Shown piece by piece: positions 22,377 through 55,587 of a stretch of 64,000 bases of DNA. The stretch covers positions 416,001-480,000 of the forward strand of contig CAXXGO010000001.1 of the NCBI GenBank assembly GCA_963666835.2, given 5' to 3'. The notes under the pieces are model-generated. The model was not told the DNA's origin. It saw only the letters and a program-made list of their open reading frames with translations, and did no database searches. This stretch comes from Phycisphaerae bacterium. GTDB lineage: Bacteria > Planctomycetota > Phycisphaerae > UBA1845. Each line of letters starts with the position of its first letter. Position 1 is the stretch's first letter. The translations under genes and the position numbers were made by a program.

Positions 22377-23045
22377 ATGAAGTGGAAAGTCGCGGCAGCT
22401 GCTGTTCTGGCGGTTCTCGTCCTTGGCGCTTCACCCGCCCGGGCCGGCAAGCCGATAGCAAACCCCTATCCGTTCGGCAAGGCCGAGGTACAGGGCAAGT
22501 CGATCGAGTACGTAGTGGAGTTACTCGCCATCGGCGACAAGTACCGCCGCCTCTGCCTCAACGCATGCTACGTCCAGAACTCGTTCGGTATCGCGGAGCA
22601 CAATGGCCGCGAGTCCAAGAACTGGTATCGCGCGGCCCTGGACCGGGAGCCCGGCAATGCCTACGCGAGCGTCTCGATCGGGTACGTCGATCTGATCCTC
22701 GGGCGCGCCGCACGCACCACAAGCGACCGGGACAGCTACTTTTCGGCGGCCATGGCTCGATTCCGCGAGGCTCTGGAGAAACGCCCGGGTTATGGCCGGG
22801 CCTATCTGTACATGGCCCAGGTCCAGGCCCTTCGCCAGGAGTACACCAAGGCCGAGAAGAACCTCGAGCTCATCCTCAACTCCGACATCGCCGAGTCGGA
22901 AACGCACTCGTGGATGGCGTACGTGCTGATCAAGACGAACCGCAAGAAGGAAGCCCAGAAACACATCGCCCGGGCTATTGAGTTGGATGACCCCTCCGAG
23001 TCGGCACGCTGGTGCCGGGACAACAGAAGAAGGGCGGAACGCTAA
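22377..23045 (+). CDS. Secreted TPR protein
   Basis: Signal peptide ending ARA. TPR-like units (YRAALDREPGNAYA, FREALEKRPGYGRAYLYMA). GGAGGA RBS. Confidence 0.85.
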   Translation: MKWKVAAAAVLAVLVLGASPARAGKPIANPYPFGKAEVQGKSIEYVVELLAIGDKYRRLCLNACYVQNSFGIAEHNGRESKNWYRAALDREPGNAYASVSIGYVDLILGRAARTTSDRDSYFSAAMARFREALEKRPGYGRAYLYMAQVQALRQEYTKAEKNLELILNSDIAESETHSWMAYVLIKTNRKKEAQKHIARAIELDDPSESARWCRDNRRRAER

Positions 23046-23046
23046 G

Positions 23047-23850
23047 ATGAGATTGCCGCGCACCTACGGATTCTGGTTGATTGCTCTGGCGACCCTGGGG
23101 ACGATCGGTTGTGCCACTATGGGCCCTCCACCCAGCGTCGAACCCCTCATGCCCCGACGCGGGATTACGCCGCGGTCGTACAAGATGAAACTCGCCGTGT
23201 TCAACCTGCAGGATCCGACCGGGTCCGGTGGTAAGCTGTCGGAGAGCGTCGCTGAGGTTCTGCACATTTCGCTCTTCGAGACGAATCGGTTCGAGCTGAT
23301 GCAGCGCGCCGAACTTCGCGGGATTGACCCGGGCGACACGAAGCGTATTCAGGAACAGTACCGCGACCGGCTCGACGCCCTCGTTGTGGGGAGCATCACC
23401 CACTTCGACACCGTCAAGAAAACCGTGGCGTTGAACGTCAACGTGATGAATCCGTACGGCACGACCATGGCCGCCAAGCACTTCGTGGTCAAATACAGCG
23501 GAAACATCAACGTCGACGCCGACCGCGACGATATCGACCGCATCGCCGAGTGGATCGAGAGATCGTTCCCGAAGCTTGCCACGGGCGAAGTCATCTCACG
23601 CTCCTCCGACCGGATTACGGTGAACCTCGGCACCGATAGCGGAGTACAGGTGGGGATGTGGATGCTCGTCGCTTCCCGCGGAGATATCGTCAGAGATCCC
23701 CAGACGGGCGAGTTCCTCGGCAGCGACATCTACGTTGGTGAAGTCTATGTGGTGGCCATCAACCCGGCCACGTGCGACGCTCGGCTCGTGCGGAACGTCA
23801 ACAAGCGAATCCCGCAGATCAAGGTCGGTGACAAGGTCGTGTTCAAATAG
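23047..23850 (+). CDS. CsgG/FlgT-like lipoprotein
   Basis: Lipobox-like TIGC. LAVFNL...NRFELMQRAEL...ALVVGSITHF (CsgG-like). C-terminal VNLG..SGV.VG...DPQTGEFLG (FlgT C-like). Confidence 0.75.
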   Translation: MRLPRTYGFWLIALATLGTIGCATMGPPPSVEPLMPRRGITPRSYKMKLAVFNLQDPTGSGGKLSESVAEVLHISLFETNRFELMQRAELRGIDPGDTKRIQEQYRDRLDALVVGSITHFDTVKKTVALNVNVMNPYGTTMAAKHFVVKYSGNINVDADRDDIDRIAEWIERSFPKLATGEVISRSSDRITVNLGTDSGVQVGMWMLVASRGDIVRDPQTGEFLGSDIYVGEVYVVAINPATCDARLVRNVNKRIPQIKVGDKVVFK

Positions 23851-23863
23851 GAGTTCCCCTGCG

Positions 23864-24302: not shown

Positions 24303-27300
24303 CTACTCCGAATAACGCAGTCTGGACTCGAGCTTGCGCTTGACGGCCGGCGGCGGATCGCACTGACGCCCCTGGCGGAACGAACGGATTGCAGCCGCGA
24401 CCTGCTCGCAGGCGAGCTGGGCGTCGCCGAGCAGTAGCCACGCTTCGGCATTCCGCGGCTCGTACCTCGTGGCCGAACTTGCAGAAACCACCGCGGCGGC
24501 GAATTCACCCTGGGCGAGCTGCACCCGGCCCCTCACAAACCAGGCGTGTCCGTACCCCGGGAACACGTCCGTCGCCCGCTTCGCGTAATCCCCGGCCCGG
24601 TCAAGCCTCTGGGCCCGCTCGTGGACCAGAGCGGCAAGGACGAGGGCCTCGCCGTTGTCCGGATTGTCCTCGAGAACATCCTCCAGCCATGGAAGGGCCT
24701 TCTCCGCCGAACGGCGGTCCCCGGCGAGCATTGTCCGAGCCAGGCCTAGCCGGGCCGCGGTGTGGTCTTCGTCGACCTCAAGGGCCCGCTCGAAGTCTTT
24801 CCGGGCGGAACGCGTCCAGCCCTTCTTCCGCAGCTCGGCGTAGCCGCGAAGAACGAGAGTCTCCGCGTCGCGCGGATGGGCGTCCAGAATCTCCGTGCAG
24901 GCCTCGATGGCCGCATCGATCTTCCCGTCCTCGAGGTCGCGACACGCTCTGGCGAACAGATCCCGCTCGTTCTGCGGACGGGATTCGGCCGGTGGAGTAT
25001 CTCCCCGCAGCCCAGCCGCAATGTCGCTCGCCATGTGATCGGGAATCCCGGAGACGTGGCCGGACCACCGGGCTTGCCGCACCATGTTCCCGGTGGAAGC
25101 ATCGACAATCCGGACGAGGATCGAGACCATGCCCTCATCGAATCGGAACTCGCCATCGATCAACAGCTCGGCGCCGACGTGGCGAGCAGCGTCCGCCTTG
25201 TTCCCTCCGGCCGTCTCCAGAGCCCCAGCGACAGTCGCCCGCTCGACCACCGTACAAAGGTCTGCATCCCGCAATCCCAGGTAGAGTGCTTGATCGACAA
25301 GCGTCCCGAGGTGCCCGGATGGTGGCACCCCGGCGTCGTTGTTGACGGAGAACAACGCGCAGGTCTGCGCTGTGTAATCCACCGCTTCTTCGGACTCGAC
25401 CGCAGGCTCACCGGTCGCGACCGGCTCGCCCGCGCCGGCCTCTTCCGTCGATGTCACGTCGGCCGCGACATCCGTCTCCGCCACAACCCGGAGCCCGTAG
25501 GTGTAGCCGCGGAAGCCCGGCCTGCCCCTGCTTCGATACGCACAACGGCAGAAGCTCGCAAGGTCGAACCCCGAGCCGCCCCGGTGAACACGGTACATAC
25601 CGCTGTCAGGACCGGTCGGATCCCGGTCTGGAGAATCGGCATAATAGTCCTCTCCGTACCAATCACCGCACCACTCCCAGACGTTGTCGTGCAGGTCATA
25701 TAGGCCCCACGGGTTGGGCTGATTCACGCCCACTGAATGAATCTCAGACGCGGAAATACCCCGACACCAGGCGTGGTCGTCCAGACGGCCCTTCGAGTCG
25801 CCGAATGAGTACGCCGTCGTAGTGCCCGCTCGGCACGAGTACTCCCACTCCGCCTCCGTAGGTAGCCGGGTCGTTCGACCAGTCCGCGCCGACAGCTTCC
25901 GGCAGAATTCCTGGCAGTCACTCCACGATACCTTCTGTACCGGATGATCGGCGCCCGTGAACCCGGACGGAACGCCTCCCATAACCGCCCGCCACTGCGC
26001 CTGCGTTACCTCGTACTTGCCCAGGTAGAACGGCTGGCTGATTCGGACGCGATGCAGCGGGTCCTCGTCACTATCGCTGTTGCTCGACCCCATCAGGAAC
26101 TCGCCCGCCGGAATCAATACCAGCTCCATCGTCACCCCGCTGCCCAAATCGAGGGTGAGCGTCGAGGCGGGATCATACTGGCGTCCACTCTCCTCCCTCA
26201 GCCGATCGGACACCTCCGGTGTGCTCACAGCCTTCTCAGGTACCCCCGCCGCAACCCGAAACCCGACGCTGCAGTTCCGTTTGTCCGGCGTGCCTATGAC
26301 ACGATACGCCGAGCGCAGGCTCACACCGTGGATGTCCAAGGCCCCGCCCCTAAAAGCGCTTCCTCCGGTGTTTCTCGACCCCACCGGATCCACCTGGACA
26401 CCGGACGGGTAAGCGCCCAGCCAGTCTGCACACCACTCGTAGACATTGCCGTGCATATCATGCAGACCCCACGGGTTGGGCTGCTTCGTACCCACCGCGT
26501 GCGTCACCCCCCCGGAGTTACCTTTATGCCACGCGTAATCGCTCAGGCGAGCCGTCGAGTCTCCGAACGAATACGCCGTCGTCGTCCCGGCCCGGCACGA
26601 GTACTCCCACTCCGCCTCTGTCGGAAGCCGAATCGGATGCCCCGCGTGCCTGGACAGCCGCCGGCAGAACTCCTGAATGTCATTCCACGACACCCTCTCG
26701 ACCGGACGGTTGTCGCCCTTGAACTTCGACGGATCACTCCCCATCACCGCGCGCCACTGGGCCTGCGTTACCTCGTACTTGCCGATGTAGAACGGGCTGC
26801 TAATCCTGACGGGATGGGGCGGCCTCTCGCCACTGCCTCCGTTGTTCGAGCCCATGGTGAACTCGCCCGCAGGTATCAACACCAACTCCATCGTCACCCC
26901 GCCGCCCAGGTCGATGGTGCGCGTTGGGGCTAGATCCTGGCGACCTCCGATCCCATCCTCCAGTCGAACCGCCTTCGTAGCCCCGACCTCGGGGACCGGC
27001 GGTTCCTCCTTCGCTTCGTCATAATCCACGGTCCCGGCACCATCGGAGACTACCGCCGGATCCTCGATAGCGGTGATACGATCATGCTCGTCTAGCGCCT
27101 CCGGGTCATCAGGGAATAATGCCAGTGCCACGCGGACAGCCCTCAGTCCCCGGTCGCGCTGGGCATACGTTGTGCAATCCCTGGCCGTGACCATGTTCCG
27201 CTCGTATCTCTCGCGCCTCTTCCGTTGCTTAACGACCGCCGGATCTTCGATAGCCTCGATCCGATCGCGCTGGAGCAACGCCTCCGGGTCGTCGGGGTAT

Positions 27301-28763
27301 AGAGCTAGAGCATCCCGTACGGCCGCCAGACCCAGTTCACGGCGGGCGTACGTCGTGCAACCGCGGGCCCTGCCCATCAGTTGCTCGTAGGTCCGTTGCT
27401 TCTCGCGGTCGGCAGCAATCGCGGGGTCGACCATATTCCCGATACGCTCGCGCTCGGCCAGCGCCTCCGGGTCGTCCGGGATCAAGAGCAAGGCCTCCCG
27501 CACCGCCGCAAGACCCGCCGTGCGATCCGCATACGATGTGCACCCTTTCGCCACAGCCAGCAGCTCATCAAACCGGGCGAGCTTCTGTTGGCCGGGATCA
27601 ACGGCCGCCGGTAGCTGGTCAGCTTCTTGCCCTTCGTCAGGAAGCGTCGCCACCGGGCTTGTTACCGGGGCAGGACTCACCTGCGAGCCGGGAGTACCTG
27701 ACCCGCCCCCCGTAATCGCCCAGATCCCGACGGCGGCCAGGACGACCACCGCCGCCAGGCCGATCCACCAGGCCGCGCGGGACGGCGAGTGGCCGGCTAT
27801 GGCGCTCAGACTCGCGCGGGCCTCGGCGGCTTCTTGGTACCGACGAGACGGATCGGCTTCCAGAGCCCGGCTGATCCAAGCATCCCACGGGGAAAGCTCG
27901 GCATCTTCTTGTCCCGGCAGACGAGTGATGCCCTCCGGCAATCTACCCATCAGCATGCGATAGGCCATCAGACCGACGGCGTAGAGATCCGTGCGGTGGT
28001 CCACGGTGGTCCCGGGCTTCTTCTGTTCGGGGGCCATGTACGACCACGTGCCGATCAGCGCCTGCGTGCTCGTACCGGCCGGAGAACCGCCCTCGTCGGG
28101 CATATCCGACCCGGCTTGGCCGTCGATGGTCGGCGCCGAGCCGATCGAAGTATCTCGCCCGCTCTTGACATCCATATCGCCCGCCGCACCCGGAATGGTC
28201 GGAGCGGAACCCAGCGAGAGGGACTCGCTGATACTGGTGAAGATCCGGTCGCGAAACATCGCCTCGCCGACGATCCGCACCAGGCCGAAATCCGCGATCC
28301 GGGCCATGGGGCCGGACGGGGTCTGCTCTATCAGCACGTTGGCCGGCTTGAGATCGCGGTGGACAACACCCTCGTCGTGGGCGTAGCTGAGCCCGTCGAG
28401 GATTTGCCCGACCAGCCGAGCGGTCGTGCGACTGTCGAGTTTGGCGCCGTGGTCCTTCAGGTAGCGGTGGAGGTCCATCGGGCCGTCGTCGTCGCCGACG
28501 TAGGCCATGACGACATACGGCCGACCGTCCTGGTCGAGATCGCTGTGCTCGATCTTGAGCAGATGGGGGTGGTCCAGCTCGGCCTGTACTTGGGCCTCTT
28601 TCTTGAACCGGTCGAGGGCCGACTCGCTGCCGTCGGTGTGCAGTACCTTGATCGCCCGGCGAAATCCGAGGTCACGGTGCTGGCACAGATACACCGCGCC
28701 CATCCCCCCACACCCCAGCCGCCGCAGGACCTTGTACGGACCAATCTGTTGCGGGTCAGTCAT
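24303..28763 (-). CDS. Ser/Thr kinase (type A) - TM - helical repeats - 2x FGE-sulfatase - CsgG/FlgO-like - TPR
   Basis: GCGGMG, HRDLKPAN, DFG, YMAPE. TM WWIGLAAVVVLAAVGIWAI. Two RLPTEAEWEY..RAG / NPWGL.D..GNV.EWC domains. TPR tail. Confidence 0.92.
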   Translation of the reverse strand: MTDPQQIGPYKVLRRLGCGGMGAVYLCQHRDLGFRRAIKVLHTDGSESALDRFKKEAQVQAELDHPHLLKIEHSDLDQDGRPYVVMAYVGDDDGPMDLHRYLKDHGAKLDSRTTARLVGQILDGLSYAHDEGVVHRDLKPANVLIEQTPSGPMARIADFGLVRIVGEAMFRDRIFTSISESLSLGSAPTIPGAAGDMDVKSGRDTSIGSAPTIDGQAGSDMPDEGGSPAGTSTQALIGTWSYMAPEQKKPGTTVDHRTDLYAVGLMAYRMLMGRLPEGITRLPGQEDAELSPWDAWISRALEADPSRRYQEAAEARASLSAIAGHSPSRAAWWIGLAAVVVLAAVGIWAITGGGSGTPGSQVSPAPVTSPVATLPDEGQEADQLPAAVDPGQQKLARFDELLAVAKGCTSYADRTAGLAAVREALLLIPDDPEALAERERIGNMVDPAIAADREKQRTYEQLMGRARGCTTYARRELGLAAVRDALALYPDDPEALLQRDRIEAIEDPAVVKQRKRRERYERNMVTARDCTTYAQRDRGLRAVRVALALFPDDPEALDEHDRITAIEDPAVVSDGAGTVDYDEAKEEPPVPEVGATKAVRLEDGIGGRQDLAPTRTIDLGGGVTMELVLIPAGEFTMGSNNGGSGERPPHPVRISSPFYIGKYEVTQAQWRAVMGSDPSKFKGDNRPVERVSWNDIQEFCRRLSRHAGHPIRLPTEAEWEYSCRAGTTTAYSFGDSTARLSDYAWHKGNSGGVTHAVGTKQPNPWGLHDMHGNVYEWCADWLGAYPSGVQVDPVGSRNTGGSAFRGGALDIHGVSLRSAYRVIGTPDKRNCSVGFRVAAGVPEKAVSTPEVSDRLREESGRQYDPASTLTLDLGSGVTMELVLIPAGEFLMGSSNSDSDEDPLHRVRISQPFYLGKYEVTQAQWRAVMGGVPSGFTGADHPVQKVSWSDCQEFCRKLSARTGRTTRLPTEAEWEYSCRAGTTTAYSFGDSKGRLDDHAWCRGISASEIHSVGVNQPNPWGLYDLHDNVWEWCGDWYGEDYYADSPDRDPTGPDSGMYRVHRGGSGFDLASFCRCAYRSRGRPGFRGYTYGLRVVAETDVAADVTSTEEAGAGEPVATGEPAVESEEAVDYTAQTCALFSVNNDAGVPPSGHLGTLVDQALYLGLRDADLCTVVERATVAGALETAGGNKADAARHVGAELLIDGEFRFDEGMVSILVRIVDASTGNMVRQARWSGHVSGIPDHMASDIAAGLRGDTPPAESRPQNERDLFARACRDLEDGKIDAAIEACTEILDAHPRDAETLVLRGYAELRKKGWTRSARKDFERALEVDEDHTAARLGLARTMLAGDRRSAEKALPWLEDVLEDNPDNGEALVLAALVHERAQRLDRAGDYAKRATDVFPGYGHAWFVRGRVQLAQGEFAAAVVSASSATRYEPRNAEAWLLLGDAQLACEQVAAAIRSFRQGRQCDPPPAVKRKLESRLRYSE
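25497..25568 (-). repeat. Internal VR-like segment in the second FGE domain (no hairpin)
   Basis: TTC GAC CTT GCG AGC TTC TGC CGT TGT GCG TAT CGA AGC AGG GGC AGG CCG GGC TTC CGC GGC TAC ACC TAC fits the VR consensus apart from CGA for CGC. Confidence 0.7.
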
Positions 28764-28819
28764 GCTACTCACTCAACCTCGCATGCCGCACTCATTGGCG
28801 AGCGGTGAAGGAAACCGGG

Positions 28820-31417
28820 CTAGGGGGCCCCGGCTACAACACGGAACCCGACATCGAAGCGGCAGAAGTCGGGCGGGACCCCCACGCGGTCCGCAGAACG
28901 GGAAGTGTGGATTCGGCCCGCGAATTGGCCGCCACGCGCCACAAAGCGGCCCTCGCCATACTGCGGTCCGCGCGGGTCGATTTGTGAATCGGACGGGTAC
29001 CGGCCGTAGATATCCGCGCACCACTCGCACACGTTCCCGTGCATGTCATACAGACCCCAAGGATTCGGTTGCTTCTCACCAACTGGGTGAGCCTGGTTGC
29101 CGCTGTTGCTGTCGCACCATTCGAATGAGTCAATCCGATCGGGGGTGTCGCCAAACGAGTAGGCTGTCGTCGTGCCGGCCCGGCAGGCGTACTCCCACTC
29201 CGCTTCCGTTGGAAGACGAAACTCACGTCCAACCCGCCGCGAAAGCTCTCGACAGAAAGCCGTTGCGTCTTCCCACGAAACGGCGCGCATCGGGTGGCGA
29301 TCACCGTATCCCCTCAACCCCCAAGCCCCTTTCTTCTTGGCACGTTGCTGACGCAAGGTCGTGCCTGTAACGGCCTCCCATTGCGCCTGCGTCACTTCGT
29401 ACTTACCCATGTAAAACGGCCGGCTAATCCTCACCCGATGTTGCGGGCCTTCATCATCCTGACGGCCTGCTTCCGACGACGGCGAACCCATCATGAACTC
29501 ACCCGCCGGGATCAACACCAGCTCCATTGTCACTCCGCCACCGAGGTCGATCGTCAACGTCGGATCGGGACCATAGTACCCTTGGATCTTCTCCTTCAAC
29601 CGAAGGGCCTCGGAGTGGCCGGGATCGAGCACTAACAACTCCTTGAGAGCCTGCAACGCCGCCCTCCCGGTGGCTTCGCTATCGTTCGCCTTCGCCTCCC
29701 GCAACAACCCGGAGACCCGCTCACGCCGATCCCGGGCCGCACGCTCCTGAGGGGACTCTAGCGACTCCAAACGCCCACGCTCAGCCAACGCCGCCGAATT
29801 GGAAGGGTACAGTTCCAGGGCCCGACGAATCGCCGACAATCCCCTGTCACGATCCGGGTACGTCGTGCAGCCTCTGGCAGTGGTGAGTAGCTGGGAGAAC
29901 CTGCCCCGTTTCTCCCGTTCGGCAACCACCGCCGGATCCTCGATTCCGGCGATACGGGTTCGCTCCGCCAACGCCGCCGCGTCGTCAGGGTACAGAGCCA
30001 GAGCCTCACGCAAGGCCGTCAGACCCCGATCGCGGGAGGAATACGCCGTGCAACCCTTGGCCGTGGCAATTAGCTGCTCGTACTGCTGCCGCTTCTCGCG
30101 CTCGGCAACGACAACCGGATCCTCGATCCGCCCGATACGCTCCCGCTCCGCGATCGCTTGAGGGTCATCGGGGAACAGAAGCAACGCCTCCCGCACCGCG
30201 GAGAAACCCCTGTCACGATCCGAGTAGGTCGTACACGCCTCCGCAATGGCCAGCAGTTCATCGAATCGCGCAAGCTTCTGTTGGCCGAGATCAACCACCT
30301 CCGGGGGAGATTCAGCTTCTCGCCCGTCGTCAGGAGGAACCACCGCCATCTTACTAGATACCGGTGGCGAATCCGCTAGCTTCTCGGAAGTGCCCGACCC
30401 AACGCCCGAAATCGCCCACAACCAAACGGCCGCAAGGACCACCACGGCCGCAAGGGCCAGTATCCGACGACGGCCGCCGCGGCCGGTCGCGCGGAGGTCG
30501 CTCAGTAGTCCGGCTGCCGAGGCGTAGCGTTCCCTGGGGTCCTCGGGGAGACATCTGTCGACGACAGCGTCCCATCGCGTCGGCAGGGCGCGAACGACCC
30601 GGGACGGGGGCTTCGCCCTCGCCGTGGGCCGCTTGCCCGTGAGCAGTCGGTACACCACTACCCCGAAAGAGTAGATGTCCGTGCGCTCGTCAATCTGGCC
30701 GGTGCCTTCGCCGCGCTGCTCCGGGGACATATAGTCGTAGGTGCCCAGAATGCTAGAGGCGCTGCTCGTGCGGCGGCTGCCGCTTCCTTCCGCGGGGATC
30801 GTGGCCGCGGCGTCGAGGGAATCTAACGCGCCGTCCGGGGATGGCGAGTGCAGCGTCGGACCGCTGCCCAGCGAGTGCTGCATCGTCGAGTGGATCTGCG
30901 AGAGAATGAACTCGCTCCCGATCGCCTTGGCCAGGCCGAAGTCGGTCAGCTTCGCATCGCCATCGGCGTCGATCAGGATGTTGGCCGGCTTGAGATCACG
31001 GTGGATCACGCCCCGCTCGTGGGCGTACTGCAGCGCCTCGGCGATCTGGATGGACCACTTCCGCACTTTGGCCTCGGGCAAGCGGCCGTCCGGCTGCTGC
31101 TTGAGGTGCTCGTGCAGGCTCAGCGGCTTGCCCTCCGGTCCGGTCACGTAGTCCATGACCAGGAAGTACACCCCCTCGGCCTGGCTCATCTGGTGAACCT
31201 GCACGATGTTCGGATGATGCAGATCGGCCATCACCCGGGCCTCGTCGTAGAATCGGGCGACGAACCCCTTATCCTGCGCCAGCCCGGCCGGCAGGATCTT
31301 CAGCGCGTACTTCTTACGCAGGTGAACGTGCTCGGCCAGATAAACCTCGCCCATCCCACCCGCGCCGATAGATTCCACGACCCGATAGTCGCCGAGTTGT
31401 CTGTCGATGAACGTCAT
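28820..31417 (-). CDS. Ser/Thr kinase (type B) - TM - helical repeats - FGE-sulfatase with divergent C-terminus
   Basis: Start MTFIDRQLGDY. Kinase motifs intact. The FGE end (RGGQFAGRIHTSRSADRVG) departs from the VR consensus and no intact hairpin follows. Confidence 0.92.
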   Translation of the reverse strand: MTFIDRQLGDYRVVESIGAGGMGEVYLAEHVHLRKKYALKILPAGLAQDKGFVARFYDEARVMADLHHPNIVQVHQMSQAEGVYFLVMDYVTGPEGKPLSLHEHLKQQPDGRLPEAKVRKWSIQIAEALQYAHERGVIHRDLKPANILIDADGDAKLTDFGLAKAIGSEFILSQIHSTMQHSLGSGPTLHSPSPDGALDSLDAAATIPAEGSGSRRTSSASSILGTYDYMSPEQRGEGTGQIDERTDIYSFGVVVYRLLTGKRPTARAKPPSRVVRALPTRWDAVVDRCLPEDPRERYASAAGLLSDLRATGRGGRRRILALAAVVVLAAVWLWAISGVGSGTSEKLADSPPVSSKMAVVPPDDGREAESPPEVVDLGQQKLARFDELLAIAEACTTYSDRDRGFSAVREALLLFPDDPQAIAERERIGRIEDPVVVAEREKRQQYEQLIATAKGCTAYSSRDRGLTALREALALYPDDAAALAERTRIAGIEDPAVVAEREKRGRFSQLLTTARGCTTYPDRDRGLSAIRRALELYPSNSAALAERGRLESLESPQERAARDRRERVSGLLREAKANDSEATGRAALQALKELLVLDPGHSEALRLKEKIQGYYGPDPTLTIDLGGGVTMELVLIPAGEFMMGSPSSEAGRQDDEGPQHRVRISRPFYMGKYEVTQAQWEAVTGTTLRQQRAKKKGAWGLRGYGDRHPMRAVSWEDATAFCRELSRRVGREFRLPTEAEWEYACRAGTTTAYSFGDTPDRIDSFEWCDSNSGNQAHPVGEKQPNPWGLYDMHGNVCEWCADIYGRYPSDSQIDPRGPQYGEGRFVARGGQFAGRIHTSRSADRVGVPPDFCRFDVGFRVVAGAP

Positions 31418-31563
31418 GGGCAGTTTCTGCCTTTTGGTCTTTGGCACGACAGTCGCAAATCGCCTCTGGGACCGCAAGATGTCGAGCGGGCGACACATCC
31501 CATCCCGCCGCGACCCAATCGCCACAGGACCTTGTACGGACCGATCTGTTGCGGGTCAGTCAT
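31414..31563 (-). pseudogene. 49-codon leader ORF: type A kinase 5' fragment coupled to the type B kinase start
   Basis: MTDPQQIGPYKVLWRLGRGGMG then unrelated sequence. Its TGA overlaps the downstream ATG (ATGA). Confidence 0.75.
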
Positions 31564-31601
31564 GCTTGCCACTCAACTTCGCACGCCGCTATCAGCGGCG
31601 A

Positions 31602-34216: not shown

Positions 34217-34362
34217 GGGCAGTTTCTGCCTTTTGGTCTTTGGCACGACAGTCGCAAATCGCCTCTGGGACCGCAAGATGTCGAGCGGGCGACACATCCC
34301 ATCCCGCCGCGACCCAATCGCCACAGGACCTTGTACGGACCGATCTGTTGCGGGTCAGTCAT
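34213..34362 (-). pseudogene. 49-codon type A kinase leader fragment (copy 2)
   Basis: Appears identical to 31414-31563 (offset 2799). Confidence 0.75.
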
Positions 34363-34441: not shown

Positions 34442-37552
<3,111 letters not shown>

Positions 37553-42259: not shown

Positions 42260-42260
42260 A

Positions 42261-42929: not shown

Positions 42930-42977
42930 CGTTATGTCCTTGTGTACTGCCGGACGAGGGCGCGCCCTCACCGGGGC

Positions 42978-45984: not shown

Positions 45985-47553
45985 TCACATCCCGACTTGG
46001 GCAAGTTCCTCAACGCTCCCTTGCAGCCCGCCGCCGAGCTGAAGACCGGGCGACAGCGGAAACGCGCTGCCGGCCGCGATCGGGACACCGTCGGCCACGA
46101 GGTTGTTCTCGTCGGCTTGGCTCTCTACCCAGAGACGCTCGCCGAGTCGCAGGACCCGCAACTGCCGGCGATCCGCACCGGTCCCGGATACGCGGATCTC
46201 GTTGTCGACACCCGCCCCACAGCCGGCCCAACGGTACACCACTACGTAACGTTCCTCGTTGGTGAGGTTGTCCACCCGCTCGATGAGCAGGGAACGCAAG
46301 CCGAGGCTCTCGGAAATCTGCCACAGAGAGTCGGGCGGGCCCAGCCGGGCGTACCGCTCGGCGGTCACGGCCGCCTCGCCCGCGGCATCGCGGTAGGGAG
46401 TCATCCGCAGCCGCAAGGTCGAGGCCACGTCCACCTCCGCCGGTCTATCCAACGGCAGCTTCACTTCGCCGGTAACGGGTTGCCCGTCCACCCGCGTCCC
46501 GTTCACGGTCTTGCGGTCGGCCAGGTACAGACCGTCGCGCCGCAACGCGATCACGAGGTGCGATTGGCCGATCATCCGAGTCGAGTGATCGTGTTCTTTC
46601 GAACGCGGAACGAGCCGGAGGATTACGTCGTTCTGCTCGCGTTTGCGGCCCATCCGGATCTTGGACTGCCCCAGCAGCAACGTTCGCGTCTCGCCGCCGG
46701 CGCCGTCCCGCAGAATGATCGAGGCCTTGTCGAGCTGCCGCTGAGTCCTGGCCAGCTCGTCGACCAGCCGGATTCCCGCGTCGCGGCGCAGCAGGCTCAC
46801 GCCGTTCCACTGCGCGGGGTAGACCTGCTTGATCAAGTCGTTGACATCGCGGATCTGGCCAGCGGCGACATCTTTGGTCACCTGGTCGCGGACGCTGAGC
46901 CCATAGCCGATGTTGCCCCCGGCGTGCATGCTCGCGTCGATGTTGATCGTCGAGGGGTTCTCGTTTCTGGCCCAGACCTTCAGGAACGGCTGGGCGGTCC
47001 AGACGTGAATCTCGCCGCCGATTCGGAAGCGCAGGGTGATGTCGACCACGTGCTCCCCGGCCAGCTCGGGGACGATCTGAATCCGGTCGTGCCCGTCACG
47101 ATACTCGTTCACGCGAACCACCGGGAACCGGCGCTCGTGCGTCGTGCCCAGCAACTGGCTGGATACCGAGAAAGACACGTCCTCGATGTTCCCCCCGCTG
47201 CGGTTCAGAAGACGAAACTCCAGCGCGCAGGCGTACTTCTCCATGTAGAAGTGGTTGTCGTTGATCTCCAGCTCGATAGGGGGAGTCTCGACGCCAGCTC
47301 CGGGAGTCGCCTCTACCCCGCAGCACGGGTCCCCGGGCTTTCGCGACGCTGCCGGCGCGTCTCCGGGGTCCGGCCGGACGCCCGCTGCCTCCGGTGGGGC
47401 CGGGTCCGTCCGGTCCTCGGCCGTTGCGGGTCCACCGCCTGGTGCGGTACTATCGATTCCGTCGTCCTCGGCCGCCATCAGCTTCTCGCCGCATTCCGTG
47501 CAGAAGCTCGCGGTGTCGTCTTCCGCCGCCGCTCCGCATCTCGGACACTTCAC
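45985..47553 (-). CDS. Zinc ribbon - shared beta-rich domain - FHA domain protein
   Basis: CPRCG..FCTECG. FHA-like RMGRK..ND...IGQSHLVI...DRKTVNGTRVDG. GTG start overlaps the stop of the avd-like ORF. Confidence 0.8.
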   Translation of the reverse strand: MKCPRCGAAAEDDTASFCTECGEKLMAAEDDGIDSTAPGGGPATAEDRTDPAPPEAAGVRPDPGDAPAASRKPGDPCCGVEATPGAGVETPPIELEINDNHFYMEKYACALEFRLLNRSGGNIEDVSFSVSSQLLGTTHERRFPVVRVNEYRDGHDRIQIVPELAGEHVVDITLRFRIGGEIHVWTAQPFLKVWARNENPSTINIDASMHAGGNIGYGLSVRDQVTKDVAAGQIRDVNDLIKQVYPAQWNGVSLLRRDAGIRLVDELARTQRQLDKASIILRDGAGGETRTLLLGQSKIRMGRKREQNDVILRLVPRSKEHDHSTRMIGQSHLVIALRRDGLYLADRKTVNGTRVDGQPVTGEVKLPLDRPAEVDVASTLRLRMTPYRDAAGEAAVTAERYARLGPPDSLWQISESLGLRSLLIERVDNLTNEERYVVVYRWAGCGAGVDNEIRVSGTGADRRQLRVLRLGERLWVESQADENNLVADGVPIAAGSAFPLSPGLQLGGGLQGSVEELAQVGM

Positions 47554-47942
47554 CACCGCGTATCTCCCCTGTATCTCGGGCATGTTGCCCGGTTCTCCCA
47601 ATGCCCCGCCCGGGGCAATGACTGCATGAGCCGGGCGGGATCACAATGTGCATTCGTCTCTTGTGCATTATAGCACGAATGAATCCTCAGCTCGTTGGCC
47701 AGCCGGGTAAGCATCCGGACAACCTGGAGATCGAGATTCGTTCCCGTCAGTAACGCCGCCCGAGTCTCCCTCGGGCTGTACTTGGCGCGAATCAGATCCT
47801 CCAAGACGGTGTACAGACCCTGCTTGAGCCGCGCTCCGATCCCGTAACGGCGACATCGCGGGAACTTCGCCAGCCGATCGATGTACCATCGAACAAGCTC
47901 GCACATACGGTCAATGACGACCAGCTCCTCGTATTTAGCCAT
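47550..47942 (-). pseudogene. avd: 3'-truncated DGR accessory variability determinant (copy 1)
   Basis: ELVVIDR..ELV.W..RLAKFPR..RYGIG.RL...LY..LE.LI.AKY...LL...NL.L...R.L.RLA.EL matches Avd for ~88 aa. The terminal EIG(R/K)xxGGW helix is absent. Confidence 0.8.
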
Positions 47943-47966
47943 TTTCTTCTCCGCTGTGCGCCGCCT

Positions 47967-49508
47967 TCAGCGGCGGCCAGGGGCTCCGCCTCTGGACCCC
48001 GGAAAAAGAGAAGAGGGTGAACTCCCCGCCACAACACGAAACCCGCTGCTGGAGAGGCGGCCGTCCGGCCAGTTCCTGCCGCGATTCGCACAACGGCAGT
48101 TGTGCGCATCGATGCTCCACGAGCCGCCCCGGAGAACACGGCACTGCCCACTACCCGGACCGGTCGGGTCCGTGCCTGGAGAATCCGCATAGTAGGCCTC
48201 TCCATACCAGTCACCGCACCACTCCCAGACGTTGCCGTGCATATCGTACAGGCCCCACGGGTTAGGCTGTTTCATGCCCACCGCGTGCGTCTTCTGCCCG
48301 GAGTGCTTGTGATACCAAGCATGGTCGCCCAAACGTCCCGTCGATTCTACGAACGAATACGGCGTCGTCGTCCCCGCCCGGCACGAGTACTCCCACTCCG
48401 CCTCCGAGGGAAGCCGTATCACACGTCCACTATGATCAGACAATCTCTGGCAGAATTCTCGGCAGTCCTCCCACGATACGTTCTCTACCGGACGATCGTC
48501 GCCCCTGAAATGTGACGGATTGTCGCCCATCACTGCCTGCCACTGAGCCTGCGTCACCTCGTATTTGCCCAGGTAGAACGGCTGGCTTATCCGGATGCGA
48601 TGGGGAGGCTTCTCGTCACGGTCTCCGTTGTTCGAACCCATGACGAACCCGCCCGCCGGAATCAGAACCAAATCCATCGCCAGACCGCTGCCAAGATCCA
48701 GCTTAGTGGGCTCAGGGTCGACAATCGCTTCCTGGATGCGCTTCGTGTACTGGGCAATGTCTGCACCACAGCTTCCACAGTAAGCATGGCCCATCCGATT
48801 CTCTTCACCACACGTGGGACACGTCCTCGTTCCAGCCTCCCGGCCTCCCGCATGGCGACGCAGCAGGCTCACGCGGCTCCACTGCGCGGGGTAGACCCGA
48901 TTGATCAGGTCGTTGACGTCGCGGATCTGGCCAGCAGCGACATCTCTGGATACCTGGTCACTGATCTTGTGTCCGTAACCGATGCTGCCCCCGGCGATCA
49001 TGCTCGCATCAAAGATGATCGTCGAGGGGTTCTCGTTTCTGGCCCACACCTTCAGGAACGGCTGCGCGGTCCAGACGTGGAGCTCGCCGCCGATCCGGTA
49101 GCGCAGCGTAATGTCGACCACGTGCTCCCCGGCTAGATCGGGGACAATCGCAATCCGGTCGTGCCCATCACGGTGTTCCTTCAGCCGGATTACCGGGAAT
49201 CGGCTTTCGTGCGTGATGCCCAACAGCTTGCTGGACACCAAGAAGGACACGTCCTCGATGTTGGCACCGCTGCGATTCAAAAGACGGAACTCCAGCACGC
49301 ACGCGTACATCTCCATGTAGAAGTGATTGTCGTTGATCGCGAGCTCGATCGGGGGAGTCTTGACCCCGGCCCTCGGGTGATGCAAACCCGACTCGTCTTC
49401 GGCCGCGACCAGTCCACCGCTCTCGACCGCCACAAGTTGCGCGCCGCATTCCGCGCAGAAGCTGGCGGTGTCATCTTCCGCCGCCGCTCCGCATTTCGGG
49501 CACTTCAC
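47967..49508 (-). CDS. Zinc ribbon - shared beta-rich domain - zinc ribbon - FGE-sulfatase; DGR target without kinase or TM
   Basis: N-terminal ~200 aa homologous to 45985-47553. FGE end RGGSWSIDAHNCRCANRGRNWPDGRLSSSGFRVV. The ORF reads through the hairpin. Confidence 0.88.
   Translation of the reverse strand: MKCPKCGAAAEDDTASFCAECGAQLVAVESGGLVAAEDESGLHHPRAGVKTPPIELAINDNHFYMEMYACVLEFRLLNRSGANIEDVSFLVSSKLLGITHESRFPVIRLKEHRDGHDRIAIVPDLAGEHVVDITLRYRIGGELHVWTAQPFLKVWARNENPSTIIFDASMIAGGSIGYGHKISDQVSRDVAAGQIRDVNDLINRVYPAQWSRVSLLRRHAGGREAGTRTCPTCGEENRMGHAYCGSCGADIAQYTKRIQEAIVDPEPTKLDLGSGLAMDLVLIPAGGFVMGSNNGDRDEKPPHRIRISQPFYLGKYEVTQAQWQAVMGDNPSHFRGDDRPVENVSWEDCREFCQRLSDHSGRVIRLPSEAEWEYSCRAGTTTPYSFVESTGRLGDHAWYHKHSGQKTHAVGMKQPNPWGLYDMHGNVWEWCGDWYGEAYYADSPGTDPTGPGSGQCRVLRGGSWSIDAHNCRCANRGRNWPDGRLSSSGFRVVAGSSPSSLFPGSRGGAPGRR
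47977..47995 (-). promoter_or_regulatory. DGR-type target hairpin (1 mismatch)
   Basis: CCAGAGGC-GGA-GCCCCTGG. Confidence 0.7.
48045..48116 (-). repeat. DGR variable region core
   Basis: NNC-type variation relative to the sister VRs. Confidence 0.88.
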
Positions 49509-49897
49509 CACCGCATATCTCCCCTGTATCTCAGGCACCTTGCCCGGTTTTCCCAATGCCCCGCCCGGGGCAATGACTGCATGAGCCGGGCGGGATCGCA
49601 ATGTGCGTTCGTCTCTTGTGCATCATAGCACAGGTGAATCCTCAGCTCGTTGGCCAGCCGGGTCAGCATCCGAACAACCTGGAGATCGAGATTCGTTCCC
49701 GTCAGTAACGCCGCCCGAGTCTCCCTCGGGCTATACTTGGCGCGAATCAGATCCTCCAAGACGGTGTATAGACCCTGCTCGAGCCGCGTTCCGATTCCGT
49801 AGCGATGACATCGCGGGAACTTCGCCAACCGATCGATATACCAGCGAACAAGCTCGTATGCACGGTCGATGACGACCAGCTCCTTGTGTTTAGCCAT
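49505..49897 (-). pseudogene. avd: 3'-truncated DGR accessory variability determinant (copy 2)
   Basis: Near-identical to 47550-47942, with the same breakpoint after LANELRIH. Confidence 0.8.
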
Positions 49898-49931
49898 CTT
49901 CTTCTCCGCTGCACGCCGCTTTCAGCGGCGG

Positions 49932-49950
49932 CCAGGGGCTCCGCCTCTGG
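49932..49950 (-). promoter_or_regulatory. DGR-type target hairpin (1 mismatch)
   Basis: CCAGAGGC-GGA-GCCCCTGG followed by CGCCGCT-GAA-AGCGGCG. Confidence 0.72.
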
Positions 49951-49972
49951 ACCCCGGAAAAAGAAAAAAGAG

Positions 49973-52560
<2,588 letters not shown>

Positions 52561-52564
<4 letters not shown>

Positions 52565-52710
52565 GGGTAGTTTCTGCCTTCTGGTCTTTGGCACGACAGT
52601 CGCAAATCGCCTCTGGGACCGCAAGATGTCGAGCGGGCGACACATCCCATCCCGCCGCGACCCAATCGCCACAGGACCTTGTACGGACCGATCTGTTGCG
52701 GGTCAGTCAT
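52561..52710 (-). pseudogene. 49-codon type A kinase leader fragment (copy 3)
   Basis: Same as 31414-31563 with two visible substitutions. ATGA overlap kept. Confidence 0.75.
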
Positions 52711-52756
52711 GCTTTCCACTCGACTTTTCTCCGCCGCACGCCGCCTTCAGCGGCGA

Positions 52757-52775
52757 CCAGGGGCTCCGCCCCTGG
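52757..52775 (-). promoter_or_regulatory. DGR-type target hairpin
   Basis: CCAGGGGC-GGA-GCCCCTGG, perfect stem. Confidence 0.8.
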
Positions 52776-52797
52776 ACCCCGGGAAAAGGGAAAAGAG

Positions 52798-55587
52798 TTA
52801 AGGGGAAAACGGTAAAGTCCCCGCCACAACCCGGAACCCGACGTAGTCGTTGCGGAGGCCCGGCCTGCACCAGCGGCGATTCGCACAACGGCAGTAGCGG
52901 GCGAGGCTGAGCCACGAGCCGCCCCGGAGAACACGGTATTTGCCACTACCAGGTCCGGTCGGATCAGCGCCCGGGGAATCCGCATAATAGTCCTCTCCGC
53001 ACCAATCACCGCACCACTCCCAGACGTTCCCGTGCATGTCATACAAGCCCCACGCGTTGGCTGGGAAACTGCCAACAGACGTGGTCTTCTCGCGGTACAC
53101 ACCCTTTCTTCCTTCACCGTACGGGTGATTCCCGTCATAGTTCACCTGATCCGGCGAGATCGTGCTGCCAAAATGGAACGGGGTCGTCGTCCCCGCCCGG
53201 CACGAGTACTCCCACTCAGCCTCCGTAGGTAAACGGATCGTTCGACCAGCTCTCTCAGACAGCTTCCGGCAGAACTCCTGAATACCGTCCCACGATACCT
53301 GCTCCACCGGAAGATCGTCGCCCTTGAAATGCGACGGATTACTCCCCATCACCGCACGCCACTGCGCCTGCGTTACCTCATGCTTGCCCATGTAAAACGG
53401 TTTGCTGATCCGTACCCGGTGTTGCGGGCCTTCATCGTCGTCGCGTTTCGCCTCTGACGACGGCGAACCCATCAAAAACTCGCCCGACTCGATCAAAACC
53501 AGATCCATCGTCACCCCGCCGCCAAGATCGATCGTTTGCTCACGGAGGGCGAGCCAGGGTTCCAGTTTTCGGCGCAGGTCACCCGCTATTCGATTCTCAC
53601 TGTCGAGTGCCAGAGCTGCGTCGATCTCTGCAACCGCGCGGTTCGCCGCAGCCTTCTCGCTCTCCGAGCGTCGGGCCGTCGGCCCAGCATCGAGATTCAA
53701 CCCGACATCGGCAATGATCTTCCGCGAGGCGGACAGGTGCCCCTCGATCTTGCCAACCGCGGTTTCGGTGATCCTGAGAGCTTCCTCGTACTTGCCGGCC
53801 GCCTGCCCGTACAACTTTCGAGCTCCAACGAAGTCCGTTCCAGCGCCCTGAGCCCGGCGCATCAGCTCCTGGGCATCGTCCAGAGCGGTCGAGGCGAACT
53901 TCCAGCCATCGCCAGTATTCGCTCGATCCTGGGCGGCCAGGGCTTCCCTGCGCGCCGCAGCTATGATGGCTTCACCCTGTTGCCGGGTCTCCTCAATCGC
54001 GAGAGTGAATCGCTCGATCGCCCGCCGGAGCAAACTCGTGGCCTCCACTCGATCGGACGTTTCCATCGCCTGTTCTTCGAGCTTCCTGGCCTGCGCGAAA
54101 CGAACGTGTGCCCACGTTTCGACGTCCAATGCAGCGGCCTCCCCCTTGGCCGACTCAAGCTCCTCTTGAGCCTGCCGAAACGCCTCTATCTCCGACTTGA
54201 TCCTCCGTGCGGCCTGCTCGGCTTCGCCGAAGACCCGGCTCGCCTCATCGTACTTGGCGACGGCATCGCCAAAGGAAGTCAGAGTGTCGTGGGCTTCGCC
54301 CTCGGCCAGGAGTTTTTCGGCGTTGGAGAGCACATCGGGTGTGTGAACCTGCGCATCGGCAGCTCGCGCCGCTTGCCGAGCGGCAAGAGCAGCGATCCGC
54401 GCACGGCTGGCTTGATCCGCCGTGGCCGTGGTGGTTTCCTCGGTGGCGGGAGGTTTGTCTTGGATATCCGGTGGTCGTACCGTCGATTGACGATCCGGTG
54501 TGCTACGCGGTGGATCCTGCTGTTGGACAACTCGGGCATTCGATGGTGGCGCAGGAGTACTCGACCCAACACCCGAGATCGCCCAGACCCCGACGGCGGC
54601 CAGTACGATCACCACCGCAAGAGCCAGCATCCGGCGGCGGCCGCTACGGCCGACCGCGCGGAGATCTTGCAGCAGTGCCGCTGCCGAGGCGTAACGGCTG
54701 GACGGCTGTCGGTCCAGGCATCGTGCCACGACCGTGTCCCATTGCTTCGATACCCCCCGGACAAGCTGCGACGGAGGTTTGGCCATCCCGGCAGGTCTTT
54801 CCCCCGTCACGAGTCGGTACGCGACCACTCCAAACGAGTAGATGTCCGTCCGTTGGTCGATTTCGCCCGTGCCCTCGCCACGCTGCTCCGGAGACATGTA
54901 GTCGTATGTACCCAGGATGCTCGACGCGCTGCTCGTGCGGCGGTTGCCGCTCCCACCCTCGGGGATGGTGGCCGCGGCGTCCAGGGTGTCCAACGCGCCG
55001 TCCGGTGACGGCGAACCGAGCGTCGGCCGGCTGCCCAGGGAGTGCTGCATCGTCGAGTGAATCTGCGATAGGATAAACTCGCTGCCGATGGCCTTGGCTA
55101 AGCCGAAGTCGGTCAGCTTCGCATCGCCGGTGGAGTCGATCAGGATGTTGGCCGGCTTGAGGTCGCGATGGATCACGCCCCGCTCGTGGGCGTACTGCAA
55201 CGCCTCGGCGATCTGGATAGACCACTTGCGGACCTTCGCCTCCGGCAGGCGGCCGTCCGGTTGCTGCTTGAGGTATTCGTGCAGGCTCAGCGGCTTGCCC
55301 TCCGGACCGGTCACGTAGTCCATGACCAGAAAATAGACCCCCTCGGCCTGGCTCATTTGGTGGACCTGGACGATGTGCGGGTGATGCAGGTCGGCCATCA
55401 CCCGGGCCTCGTCGTAGAAACGGGCCACGAACCCCTTATTCTGCGCCAGCCCGGCCGGCAGGATCTTCAGCGCATACTTCTTGCGTAGGTGGACGTGCTC
55501 GGCCAGATAAACCTCGCCCATCCCACCCGCGCCGATAGGCTCCACGATCCGATAGTCGCCGAGTTGTCTGTCGATGAACGTTCCCAT
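52798..55587 (-). CDS. Ser/Thr kinase (type B) - TM - distinct helical stalk - FGE-sulfatase; DGR target
   Basis: MGTFIDRQLGDY start, kinase motifs, FGE end RGGSWLSLARYCRCANRRWCRPGLRNDYVGFRVV. Confidence 0.93.
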   Translation of the reverse strand: MGTFIDRQLGDYRIVEPIGAGGMGEVYLAEHVHLRKKYALKILPAGLAQNKGFVARFYDEARVMADLHHPHIVQVHQMSQAEGVYFLVMDYVTGPEGKPLSLHEYLKQQPDGRLPEAKVRKWSIQIAEALQYAHERGVIHRDLKPANILIDSTGDAKLTDFGLAKAIGSEFILSQIHSTMQHSLGSRPTLGSPSPDGALDTLDAAATIPEGGSGNRRTSSASSILGTYDYMSPEQRGEGTGEIDQRTDIYSFGVVAYRLVTGERPAGMAKPPSQLVRGVSKQWDTVVARCLDRQPSSRYASAAALLQDLRAVGRSGRRRMLALAVVIVLAAVGVWAISGVGSSTPAPPSNARVVQQQDPPRSTPDRQSTVRPPDIQDKPPATEETTTATADQASRARIAALAARQAARAADAQVHTPDVLSNAEKLLAEGEAHDTLTSFGDAVAKYDEASRVFGEAEQAARRIKSEIEAFRQAQEELESAKGEAAALDVETWAHVRFAQARKLEEQAMETSDRVEATSLLRRAIERFTLAIEETRQQGEAIIAAARREALAAQDRANTGDGWKFASTALDDAQELMRRAQGAGTDFVGARKLYGQAAGKYEEALRITETAVGKIEGHLSASRKIIADVGLNLDAGPTARRSESEKAAANRAVAEIDAALALDSENRIAGDLRRKLEPWLALREQTIDLGGGVTMDLVLIESGEFLMGSPSSEAKRDDDEGPQHRVRISKPFYMGKHEVTQAQWRAVMGSNPSHFKGDDLPVEQVSWDGIQEFCRKLSERAGRTIRLPTEAEWEYSCRAGTTTPFHFGSTISPDQVNYDGNHPYGEGRKGVYREKTTSVGSFPANAWGLYDMHGNVWEWCGDWCGEDYYADSPGADPTGPGSGKYRVLRGGSWLSLARYCRCANRRWCRPGLRNDYVGFRVVAGTLPFSP
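52840..52911 (-). repeat. DGR variable region core
   Basis: NNC-type variation relative to the sister VRs. Confidence 0.9.

Follow-up and report, generated by a model that had tools for sequence, protein, structure and literature searches.

According to Vallota-Eastman et al. (2020; PMC7517822), kinase–lectin proteins are the commonest multidomain targets of diversity-generating retroelements (DGRs) in cyanobacteria, where they come with remote paralogues and are mostly predicted to be cytosolic. Here we describe an array of comparable genes in a 64,000-nucleotide (nt) stretch of DNA from a bacterium of the Phycisphaerae (G000:C1:416001-480000, referred to below as the window), an organism known only from environmental assemblies. 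Seven minus-strand open reading frames (ORFs), K1–K7, join a protein kinase domain to an FGE-sulfatase domain (FGE, formylglycine-generating enzyme), and an eighth gene, F8, carries an FGE domain behind zinc ribbons. We are fairly confident that these genes are a tandem family of receptor kinases on an island at the tmRNA gene, that the tips of seven of their FGE domains were written by a DGR, and that the last homing events took place in trans.

The array resembles the cyanobacterial variable proteins in joining a Hanks-type kinase to a DGR-diversified lectin fold and in having many paralogues per genome; in that system, as it is described, some targets lie away from the reverse transcriptase (RT) and template repeat (TR), and conserved 3' features have been proposed to serve remote targeting (PMC7517822). 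It differs in that six of the proteins bearing a variable repeat (VR) are predicted to be single-pass receptors with the lectin domain outside, whereas those described from cyanobacteria are mostly predicted to be cytosolic, and in that seven VRs lie here within 31 kb and neither RT nor TR was found in the assembly.

Incomplete DGR loci, with likely diversification in trans, are described by Dore et al. (2024; PMC10907252) in Thiohalocapsa PB-PSB1. There too the account gives multiple target loci, some without an RT and/or TR, that have been shaped by duplication and mobile DNA, and it includes a protein kinase domain among the target domains and reads the targets as antigen sensors (PMC10907252). 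PB-PSB1 is said there to keep several complete DGRs able to act in trans, whereas none was found in the present assembly, and the reported context is that of STAND or MoxR-vWA systems, in contrast to the FHA, SPFH and lipoprotein genes seen here. In the survey by Wu et al. (2018; PMC5758913), FGE-sulfatase targets are given as the largest class (category b), with a subtype b12 that has a kinase domain and with internal VRs, and a Stenotrophomonas DGR is described with eight tandem target genes. The entries of that survey share with our array the FGE-sulfatase-type VR at or near the C-terminus, the kinase fusion, the tandem arrangement and the internal VRs, and they differ from it in being complete cassettes defined by their RT, whereas here we see targets and avd genes only (PMC5758913).

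PMC4010831 notes a Legionella integrative conjugative element that carries DGRs, where DGR components are likewise cargo of an integrative mobile element. Our island differs in holding only targets and avd genes and in its integration at a tmRNA gene, and conjugation genes were not seen in the window. The Legionella element reportedly carries a complete DGR with a lipoprotein target. There is a further likeness to TvpA of Treponema denticola (PDB 2y3c), a variable protein that belongs to a DGR and has a lectin fold of the FGE type. We take TvpA to be a stand-alone lipoprotein-type variable protein, whereas here the domain would be the ectodomain of a receptor kinase. In addition, conflict systems of multicellular bacteria, planctomycetes among them, have been connected with FGE-type domains and DGRs by Kaur et al. 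(2020; PMC7159879).

Each ingredient of the array has already been published, with kinase–lectin targets, tandem targets, incomplete loci and island-borne DGRs all described in these sources. An earlier note on this stretch had suggested that the packaging of the whole set on an island might be undescribed, and this claim looks weak beside the Legionella element (PMC4010831), the tandem and kinase–FGE targets (PMC5758913) and the remote paralogues (PMC7517822) as they are reported. What is unusual is the combination, in which seven VRs occur in one island-borne receptor-kinase array that bears signs of very recent rewriting, in a near-complete assembly in which neither RT nor TR was found.

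DGR footprint in the FGE domains

The array of K1–K7 and F8 spans 24303-55587 of the window on the minus strand, where a Pfam search found the Pkinase and FGE-sulfatase families together in the seven K ORFs. There are nine FGE domains across the eight genes, K1 carrying two, and the predicted features of each gene are as follows.

24303..28772, minus strand: K1, class-A kinase with a membrane helix, a pair of FGE domains and TPRs at the C-terminus; internal VR in the second FGE domain, core 25497-25568
28820..31525, minus strand: K2, class-B kinase, membrane helix, helical stalk and FGE domain; VR-like end diverged, without the shared flanks
31643..34324, minus strand: K3, class-B receptor kinase; VR core 31685-31756; block like an initiation of mutagenic homing site (IMH-like) 31662-31684; GC-rich inverted repeats downstream
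34442..37552, minus strand: K4, class-A kinase and FGE domain; VR core 34484-34555; FGE domain 94% identical to that of K3
37741..40386, minus strand: K5, zinc ribbon, class-C kinase, membrane helix, FGE domain and C-terminal T2SSG domain; internal VR core 38215-38286
47967..49601, minus strand: F8, two zinc ribbons and an FGE domain, without a kinase or convincing membrane helix; VR core 48045-48116
49973..52672, minus strand: K6, class-B receptor kinase; VR core 50015-50086
52798..55587, minus strand: K7, class-B receptor kinase; VR core 52840-52911

The true starts of K2, K3 and K6 probably lie 36 codons into the longest ORF; for K3 the database copy has 857 amino acids compared with 893 for that ORF.

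VRs were found in seven of the nine FGE domains (the second domain of K1, and those of K3, K4, K5, F8, K6 and K7), and in all seven a 72-nt core is preceded by a shared 18-nt anchor and followed by a GC-rich block. The 38 invariant columns of the aligned cores contain no adenine (C 20, G 13, T 5), and 31 of the 34 variable columns fall at codon positions 1–2, giving NNC or NNT codons. In two 72-nt stretches just upstream of the VR, adenines do occupy invariant columns (2/34 and 9/46). The FGE domain of K2 and the first of K1 have a VR-like frame but lack the shared flanks, and were left out of the count of seven.

The variable columns correspond to the adenines of real templates. A complete cassette of FGE target, avd–RT and TR in a genome of the same order (G060) has AAC in its TR at the codons that are variable here; placed in register, 29/29 of its adenines fall on variable columns, compared with 5/43 of its other positions (Fisher 2e-15). 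In two genomes of the same family, G473 with its TR and G016 with a repeat resembling a TR, 25/25 adenines fall on variable columns in each case.

K3 and K4 share a block of 1,040 nt (31278-32317 and 34077-35116, offset 2,799) that is identical save for 21 differences, all of them within 31686-31756 and 20 of the 21 at codon positions 1–2, with no substitution in the 1,019 flanking bases. Since ordinary divergence does not confine differences in this way, the VR would have been replaced by mutagenic homing after the duplication. The sequence following the VR is also conserved, with an IMH-like block of 23 nt identical in K3, K4, K6 and K7 and differing at 2–3 bases in the second FGE domain of K1 (K1b) and in F8. 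Five targets also conserve ~100 nt of flank, in which there are two GC-rich inverted repeats, and the IMH-like block together with the downstream flank is fully conserved in four; covariation was found in 0/29 of the predicted hairpin pairs of this 3' flank.

We conclude from these alignments that the footprint of DGR hypermutation in the seven FGE domains is real and strong, and that a DGR wrote the ligand-binding tips of these domains, the VRs differing where a TR has adenine, mostly in NNC codons. The earlier note had described the ectodomains as DGR-hypervariable, and this holds as a statement about the history of seven domains rather than their current activity; it does not extend to an RT or TR, neither of which was found, or to the two FGE domains without the shared VR flanks.

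Predicted receptor kinases

We regard K1–K7 as predicted Hanks-type Ser/Thr protein kinases with a complete motif set: the G-loop, VAIK lysine, HRDxKPxN, DFG and APE/SPE motifs are kept in all seven, and their Pfam Pkinase E-values range from 1e-34 to 1e-47. Each protein has one strongly hydrophobic stretch (peak 2.2–2.6 in a 19-residue Kyte–Doolittle scan) with an Arg-rich flank on its N-terminal side. Hydropathy and the positive-inside rule predict a cytoplasmic kinase, on the Arg-rich side, and an FGE domain on the outer side of the membrane. K3 was modelled with AlphaFold2 (857 amino acids, 20-sequence alignment, mean pLDDT 78.9). Residues 1-310 form the kinase, whose activation loop has a disordered insert, and residues 314-335 a helix; a disordered linker then leads to a stalk of helical repeats (376-613), which is followed by the FGE domain (619-855).

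We consider the fold of the K3 FGE domain to be settled by its sequence match to T. denticola TvpA, which is its best solved relative (PDB 2y3c, E 7.4e-46), with the true formylglycine-generating enzymes behind at ~1e-30. TvpA is reported to be without formylglycine-generating activity (PMC5758913). Among the best 120 relatives of K3 listed, 59 have both the kinase and FGE-sulfatase families (4 of those are from this genome) and several of these kinase–FGE relatives are named from Planctomycetota metagenome-assembled genomes (MAGs). The kinase–FGE fusion by itself is a common architecture.

The earlier note had read seven co-oriented genes as kinase–transmembrane–stalk–FGE proteins with intact catalytic motifs, and Pfam, the motif check and hydropathy agree with it. 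They also agree that an eighth FGE gene, which is F8, lacks both kinase and transmembrane helix (Pfam, hydropathy), and the receptor-like layout, with the kinase on the Arg-rich side of a single helix and the FGE domain opposite, stands as a prediction from hydropathy and the K3 model. That note did not mention the second FGE domain and TPRs of K1, the two avd genes, or the domain at the C-terminus of K5 (37741-38100), a T2SSG pseudopilin G-like domain (E 1.1e-23) which comes after the FGE domain and its internal VR. In the layout we propose, a cytoplasmic kinase would be connected through a single membrane helix and a stalk of helical repeats to an external FGE domain with a lectin fold like that of TvpA, and F8 would be the one soluble zinc-ribbon paralogue of the receptor family.

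A mosaic family

The kinases fall into three classes, A (K1 and K4, 93% identical), B (K2, K3, K6 and K7, 88–96%) and C (K5), with ~36–40% identity between classes. FGE relationships do not track kinase class, as the FGE domains of K3 (class B) and K4 (class A) are 94% identical, and within kinase class B the FGE domains share 57–82% identity compared with 88–96% for the kinases. F8 and the FHA protein described below are paralogous over their first ~270 residues, after which one continues with the FGE domain and the other with the FHA domain. We also note a remnant of ~16 codons of a class-A kinase start after the stops of K3, K4 and K7 (31530-31610, 34330-34410 and 52680-52760), in each case before the next class-B gene, which we read as a probable scar of recombination that was copied whenever the unit was duplicated. 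The sequence comparisons indicate that modules have been shuffled by duplication and recombination.

A conserved module within the array

Five genes lie between K5 and F8 (SPFH, the 236- and 336-amino acid proteins, HTH_17 and FHA), and two further genes are found at the edge of the array.

22377..23045, plus strand: TPR protein, secreted, at the array edge; TPR families, N-terminus hydrophobic in translation
22978..23850, plus strand: lipoprotein-like ORF with a Cys lipobox-like motif; CsgG E 0.05 and TolB_N E 0.008, both sub-threshold
40412..42259, minus strand: zinc-ribbon SPFH/Band-7 protein; Band_7 36.1 bits, cut-off 23.6
42261..42971, minus strand: 236-amino acid secreted protein with a C-terminal membrane anchor; LpoB-like only via its homologue in locus L024
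42978..43988, minus strand: 336-amino acid lipoprotein; lipobox-like motif in translation; homologues in loci L024 and L142
44328..45677, minus strand: HTH_17 (excisionase-type DNA-binding) protein with a long C-terminal extension; HTH_17 E 4.3e-18
45985..47601, minus strand: zinc-ribbon FHA protein; FHA 26.2 bits, cut-off 20.7, residues 316-382

The earlier note had FHA, SPFH, CsgG-like, TPR and lipoprotein genes interleaved with the kinases. FHA and SPFH do score above cut-off and, with the 336-amino acid lipoprotein, lie within the array; the CsgG-like assignment is sub-threshold (E 0.05), and the TPR (22377-23045) and other lipoprotein (22978-23850) genes are on the plus strand at its edge. 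The idea that the 449-amino acid HTH_17 protein might be a decayed RT was rejected, as it groups with HTH_17 proteins (Atlas cluster, score 0.94) and RT similarity is absent.

Linkage of kinases with the FHA, lipoprotein and SPFH genes, as the earlier note had anticipated, recurs in four other genomes. In L024, a Planctomycetota MAG contig and one of 79 loci fetched with a kinase–FGE alignment, the order is HTH_17, a gene like that of the 336-amino acid protein, an LpoB-like pair, a zinc-ribbon SPFH gene and then a receptor kinase, with the SPFH protein 40% identical over 621 amino acids and the outer part of the kinase being PEGA and not FGE. The FHA protein used as a query matched four genomes among 200 others of the same order. 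G476, from the same family, has the order FHA, 336-amino acid-like, 236-amino acid-like and SPFH (47–58% identity), and its module is adjoined by a divergent kinase–helix–FGE gene with an FGE domain of the K5 type whose C-terminal codons are not restricted to NNC. The FHA gene of G480 adjoins a K5-like kinase, and G595 has two kinases, then FHA, then SPFH. SPFH homologues adjoin receptor kinases in L024, L142 and L145, and FHA homologues lie beside kinases in L142, L143 and L145; the SPFH protein alone is rare, with a match at E <= 1e-20 in 1/400 other genomes of the phylum.

Upstream of the module in L024 (974-5362), a further kinase gene is accompanied by genes for an AAA ATPase, a zinc-ribbon protein and a protein with a weak match to Snf7 (E 4.7e-4), which hint at a membrane-remodelling context.

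The core of the array would be a conserved signalling module, here flanked by expanded DGR-marked kinase paralogues, and the recurring linkage supports, without proving it, the idea that the kinases, an FHA reader and a membrane scaffold are functionally linked. In the mechanism we propose, the array would surround this module of a zinc-ribbon FHA protein, two envelope lipoproteins, a zinc-ribbon SPFH protein and a receptor kinase. The variable tip of each receptor would bind a ligand of its own, in the periplasm or at the surface, leading to kinase activation, and the phospho-threonine signal would be read by the FHA protein, with action at the membrane together with the SPFH scaffold and the lipoproteins. 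Signalling through FHA might, as the earlier note suggested, serve self/non-self, phage or prey recognition.

The tmRNA-integrated island

The earlier note had placed the array within a single tmRNA-integrated element, which the tmRNA gene, an integrase and a 19-nt repeat confirm.

13418..13772, plus strand: tmRNA gene; Rfam RF00023, 162.9 bits, full length (ARAGORN found nothing)
13751-13769: left attachment repeat, the tmRNA 3' end
13900..15138, plus strand: tyrosine integrase of island 1; Phage_integrase E 3.5e-31, PHROG integrase E 4.8e-49
18143..19033, minus strand: primase-like (Toprim) backbone gene of island 1; PHROG DNA primase/helicase E 1.4e-13, Toprim_3 weak
57459..57477, plus strand: 19-nt repeat matching the tmRNA 3' end exactly; boundary between island 1 (its right end) and island 2 (its left end)
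57446..58927, minus strand: integrase of the next tandem island; Phage_integrase E 1.2e-15, PHROG integrase; overlaps the 19-nt repeat

The integrase starts 128 nt downstream of the tmRNA gene, and the three features together put the array inside one 43.7-kb island, which it mostly fills (GC content 63.2% compared with 61.2% for the genome). Further repeats of the tmRNA end occur at C1:514383-514422 (39/40 nt) and C1:605717-605735 (19 nt), and the integrase that opens the third island is 65% identical to that of the first, from which we read three tandem islands at the tmRNA gene (G000:C1:429772-605735). No phage structural gene was found in the island 1 backbone with PHROGs. Homologues of the integrases int1 and int2 and of the primase were not found near the modules of the relatives, within the fetched stretches; in L142 one tRNA lies 3.5 kb from the module.

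Several neighbouring features were also seen. Island 2 (L019 = G000:C1:478001-496000, ~5200-16546) has a 396-amino acid FGE protein, a full-length bAvd-like gene, a 1441-amino acid protein with two FGE domains and a 1554-amino acid LVIVD-repeat protein, and neither an RT nor a TR/VR pair was found in the L019 stretch. The right end of island 1 (window 55922-56728) carries a 268-amino acid zinc-ribbon multi-pass membrane ORF with a 70%-identical paralogue at C1:776151-776945. PAS/GAF hybrid histidine kinases and stand-alone response regulators form a cluster at window 2-8640, which is outside the island and upstream of the tmRNA gene.

avd genes and the search for an RT and TR

Two 130-codon avd ORFs lie directly downstream of K6 (avd-2) and F8 (avd-1).

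47550..47942, minus strand: avd-1, DGR accessory gene; NF033474 E 3.5e-14
49505..49897, minus strand: avd-2, copy of avd-1; NF033474 E 1.1e-15

Their NF033474 scores are 53 (avd-1) and 57.7 bits (avd-2) against an equivalog cut-off of 80, and the bAvd profile was matched over positions 1-80 of 107 with 31.7 and 33.3 bits respectively (gathering cut-off 40). The two genes differ at 31/393 nt (~8%), with 14 synonymous and 12 non-synonymous codon changes, from which we obtain a rough estimate of dN/dS of ~0.3 from few sites. Each is followed directly by a zinc-ribbon gene (avd-2 by F8 and avd-1 by the FHA gene) and not by an RT and TR. Canonical target–avd–RT–TR cassettes are found in three genomes of the same family, G473, G474 and G011, the first with an FGE domain 59% and avd 48–51% identical to those of the window; the targets of these same-family cassettes are FGE-only proteins or adjoin a MoxR-type ATPase, and none is a kinase.

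A number of results weigh against our reading of the locus. The last quarter of both avd products is off the Avd profile and without the C-terminal motif of the relatives, on which account the copies may be impaired. No DGR-type RT was found in the window or in the assembly (6.02 Mb, 7 contigs, rated 92.3% complete) in a six-frame search with PF00078/RVT_1 that gave 14 matches, none of them in the window, and the sensitivity of this search is adequate because it detects the DGR-type RTs of relatives at 65–70 bits. We read the matches, on size, copy number and sequence, as 12 near-identical and one variant putative RTs of group II intron type and one 958-amino acid RT fusion. A tblastn search with the DGR RTs of four relatives returned only these same RTs and avd, with nothing further at E 50 in the window. 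Nor was a copy of the TR found in the window or assembly by BLAST of a VR, a fuzzy motif search or an adenine-bias repeat scan. The receptor topology is itself a prediction from hydropathy and the positive-inside rule, and contigs of two studies carry an identical F8 VR (X2, record 9) and K6 VR (X6, record 28). This identity leans towards a stable repertoire, in contigs that drop minor alleles and with one run that may be the source sample.

The genome-wide adenine-bias scan covered 305 chunks and returned three weak pairs with 7–9 mismatches on contig C6, and the same scan recovers TR/VR pairs in 3/79 fetched loci and in L132-L134, which are same-family cassettes. Degenerate VR/TR patterns gave no matches in public genome, metagenome (two patterns) and viral (two patterns) contigs, in exact-pattern scans which diverged templates would escape.

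The 12 near-identical RT ORFs are 508 or 451 amino acids long and the variant 481, mostly on contig C6, and the 958-amino acid ORF (C6:1808095-1810971) has its RT domain within a larger protein. It should also be noted that the TR-like repeat of G016 (L020 12398-12503, G016:C17) is rich in Asn codons and lies directly upstream of an avd gene with an off-profile C-terminus; no RVT_1 match was found genome-wide in G016 (93% complete), and no VR matching the repeat was found.

Timing of homing and alternative explanations

The same avd/zinc-ribbon junction is seen in both avd copies at ~8% divergence, so the junction is older than the K3/K4 duplication, and the K3/K4 homing would thus have used an RT and TR that did not adjoin these avd genes. 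Most likely, the last homing events used an RT and TR elsewhere, in trans. This would leave two states, in which the engine has either been lost very recently or sits on DNA outside the assembly. The public runs examined are low-depth metagenomes with contigs breaking at repeats, in which minor VR alleles, gene order and the engine are not resolvable.

In the first of these states, for which we would give nearly even chances, the RT and TR have been deleted from the lineage, the seven VRs now evolve as ordinary paralogues, and avd is a leftover or has another role. The failure to find either component in a 7-contig, 92.3%-complete assembly fits such a loss, as do the off-profile avd C-termini, the same-family G016 with its TR-like repeat and avd and no RT match found, the unchanged F8 and K6 VRs in the contigs from two studies, and the degenerate and incomplete DGR loci on record (PMC10907252). 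Set against it are the clean K3/K4 flanks beside 21 VR differences, by which any loss of the engine must be very recent, the avd genes, in which change per site is more synonymous than non-synonymous, and the full conservation of the IMH-like block, with the flank downstream of it, in four targets.

We regard it as plausible, while leaning somewhat against it, that the system is still live. An RT and TR on a replicon or region that was not assembled or binned (plasmid, phage or gap) would then diversify the island targets in trans, and the island would supply avd. The diversification of K3 and K4 postdates their duplication, the changes in avd are of a purifying type, the IMH-like block and hairpins are conserved, and the junction common to both avd copies at 8% divergence implies that there was no adjacent RT when K3 and K4 diverged; diversification of remote targets in trans has also been proposed in Thiohalocapsa (PMC10907252) and cyanobacteria (PMC7517822). 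Against this, no engine has been seen in an assembly that is nearly complete, exact-pattern scans with degenerate VR/TR patterns returned nothing from the genome, metagenome and viral collections, and the VRs are identical across contigs of two studies. A more specific proposal is that the island is a mobile target-only cassette of receptors and avd, served by an RT and template on another replicon in a satellite–helper division of labour, which we think rather unlikely.

An artefact of assembly, in which metagenome repeats were mis-joined or duplicated to give the array or its size, is improbable. The genome does come from environmental data, the runs with its sequence are low-depth metagenomes whose contigs break inside repeats, and exact 1-kb repeats are prone to assembly error, but every copy has its own VR, stalk and kinase class, 71–87% of the sampled words of 47900-55600 are present in four runs of two studies, and contig C1 is 2.17 Mb long. 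Finally, ordinary paralogue divergence or positive selection on binding loops, without a retroelement, would explain FGE domains more diverged than their kinases (57–82% versus 88–96% in class B), as expected of any sensor family, and is hardly credible given invariant VR columns free of adenine, variation concentrated at codon positions 1–2, variable columns that coincide perfectly with the adenines of three independent real TRs, K3/K4 differences held within 71 nt of an otherwise identical block, and avd genes in the array.

Implications

The preferred reading of a receptor-kinase array last rewritten in trans places seven DGR-written VRs in one locus, six of them in predicted membrane receptor kinases, beside a recurring FHA/SPFH/lipoprotein module, and in doing so the locus would give a concrete signalling context for this class of variable receptors. 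It poses the question of whether a DGR target array can be kept and recently rewritten without an RT of its own. If the engine is elsewhere, targets and engine would be separable mobile units, and if the engine is gone, the locus would be a dated snapshot of a hypervariable repertoire freezing. Should the island prove to be a target-only cassette, then the mutagenic engine and the receptors that it rewrites would move and be inherited separately.

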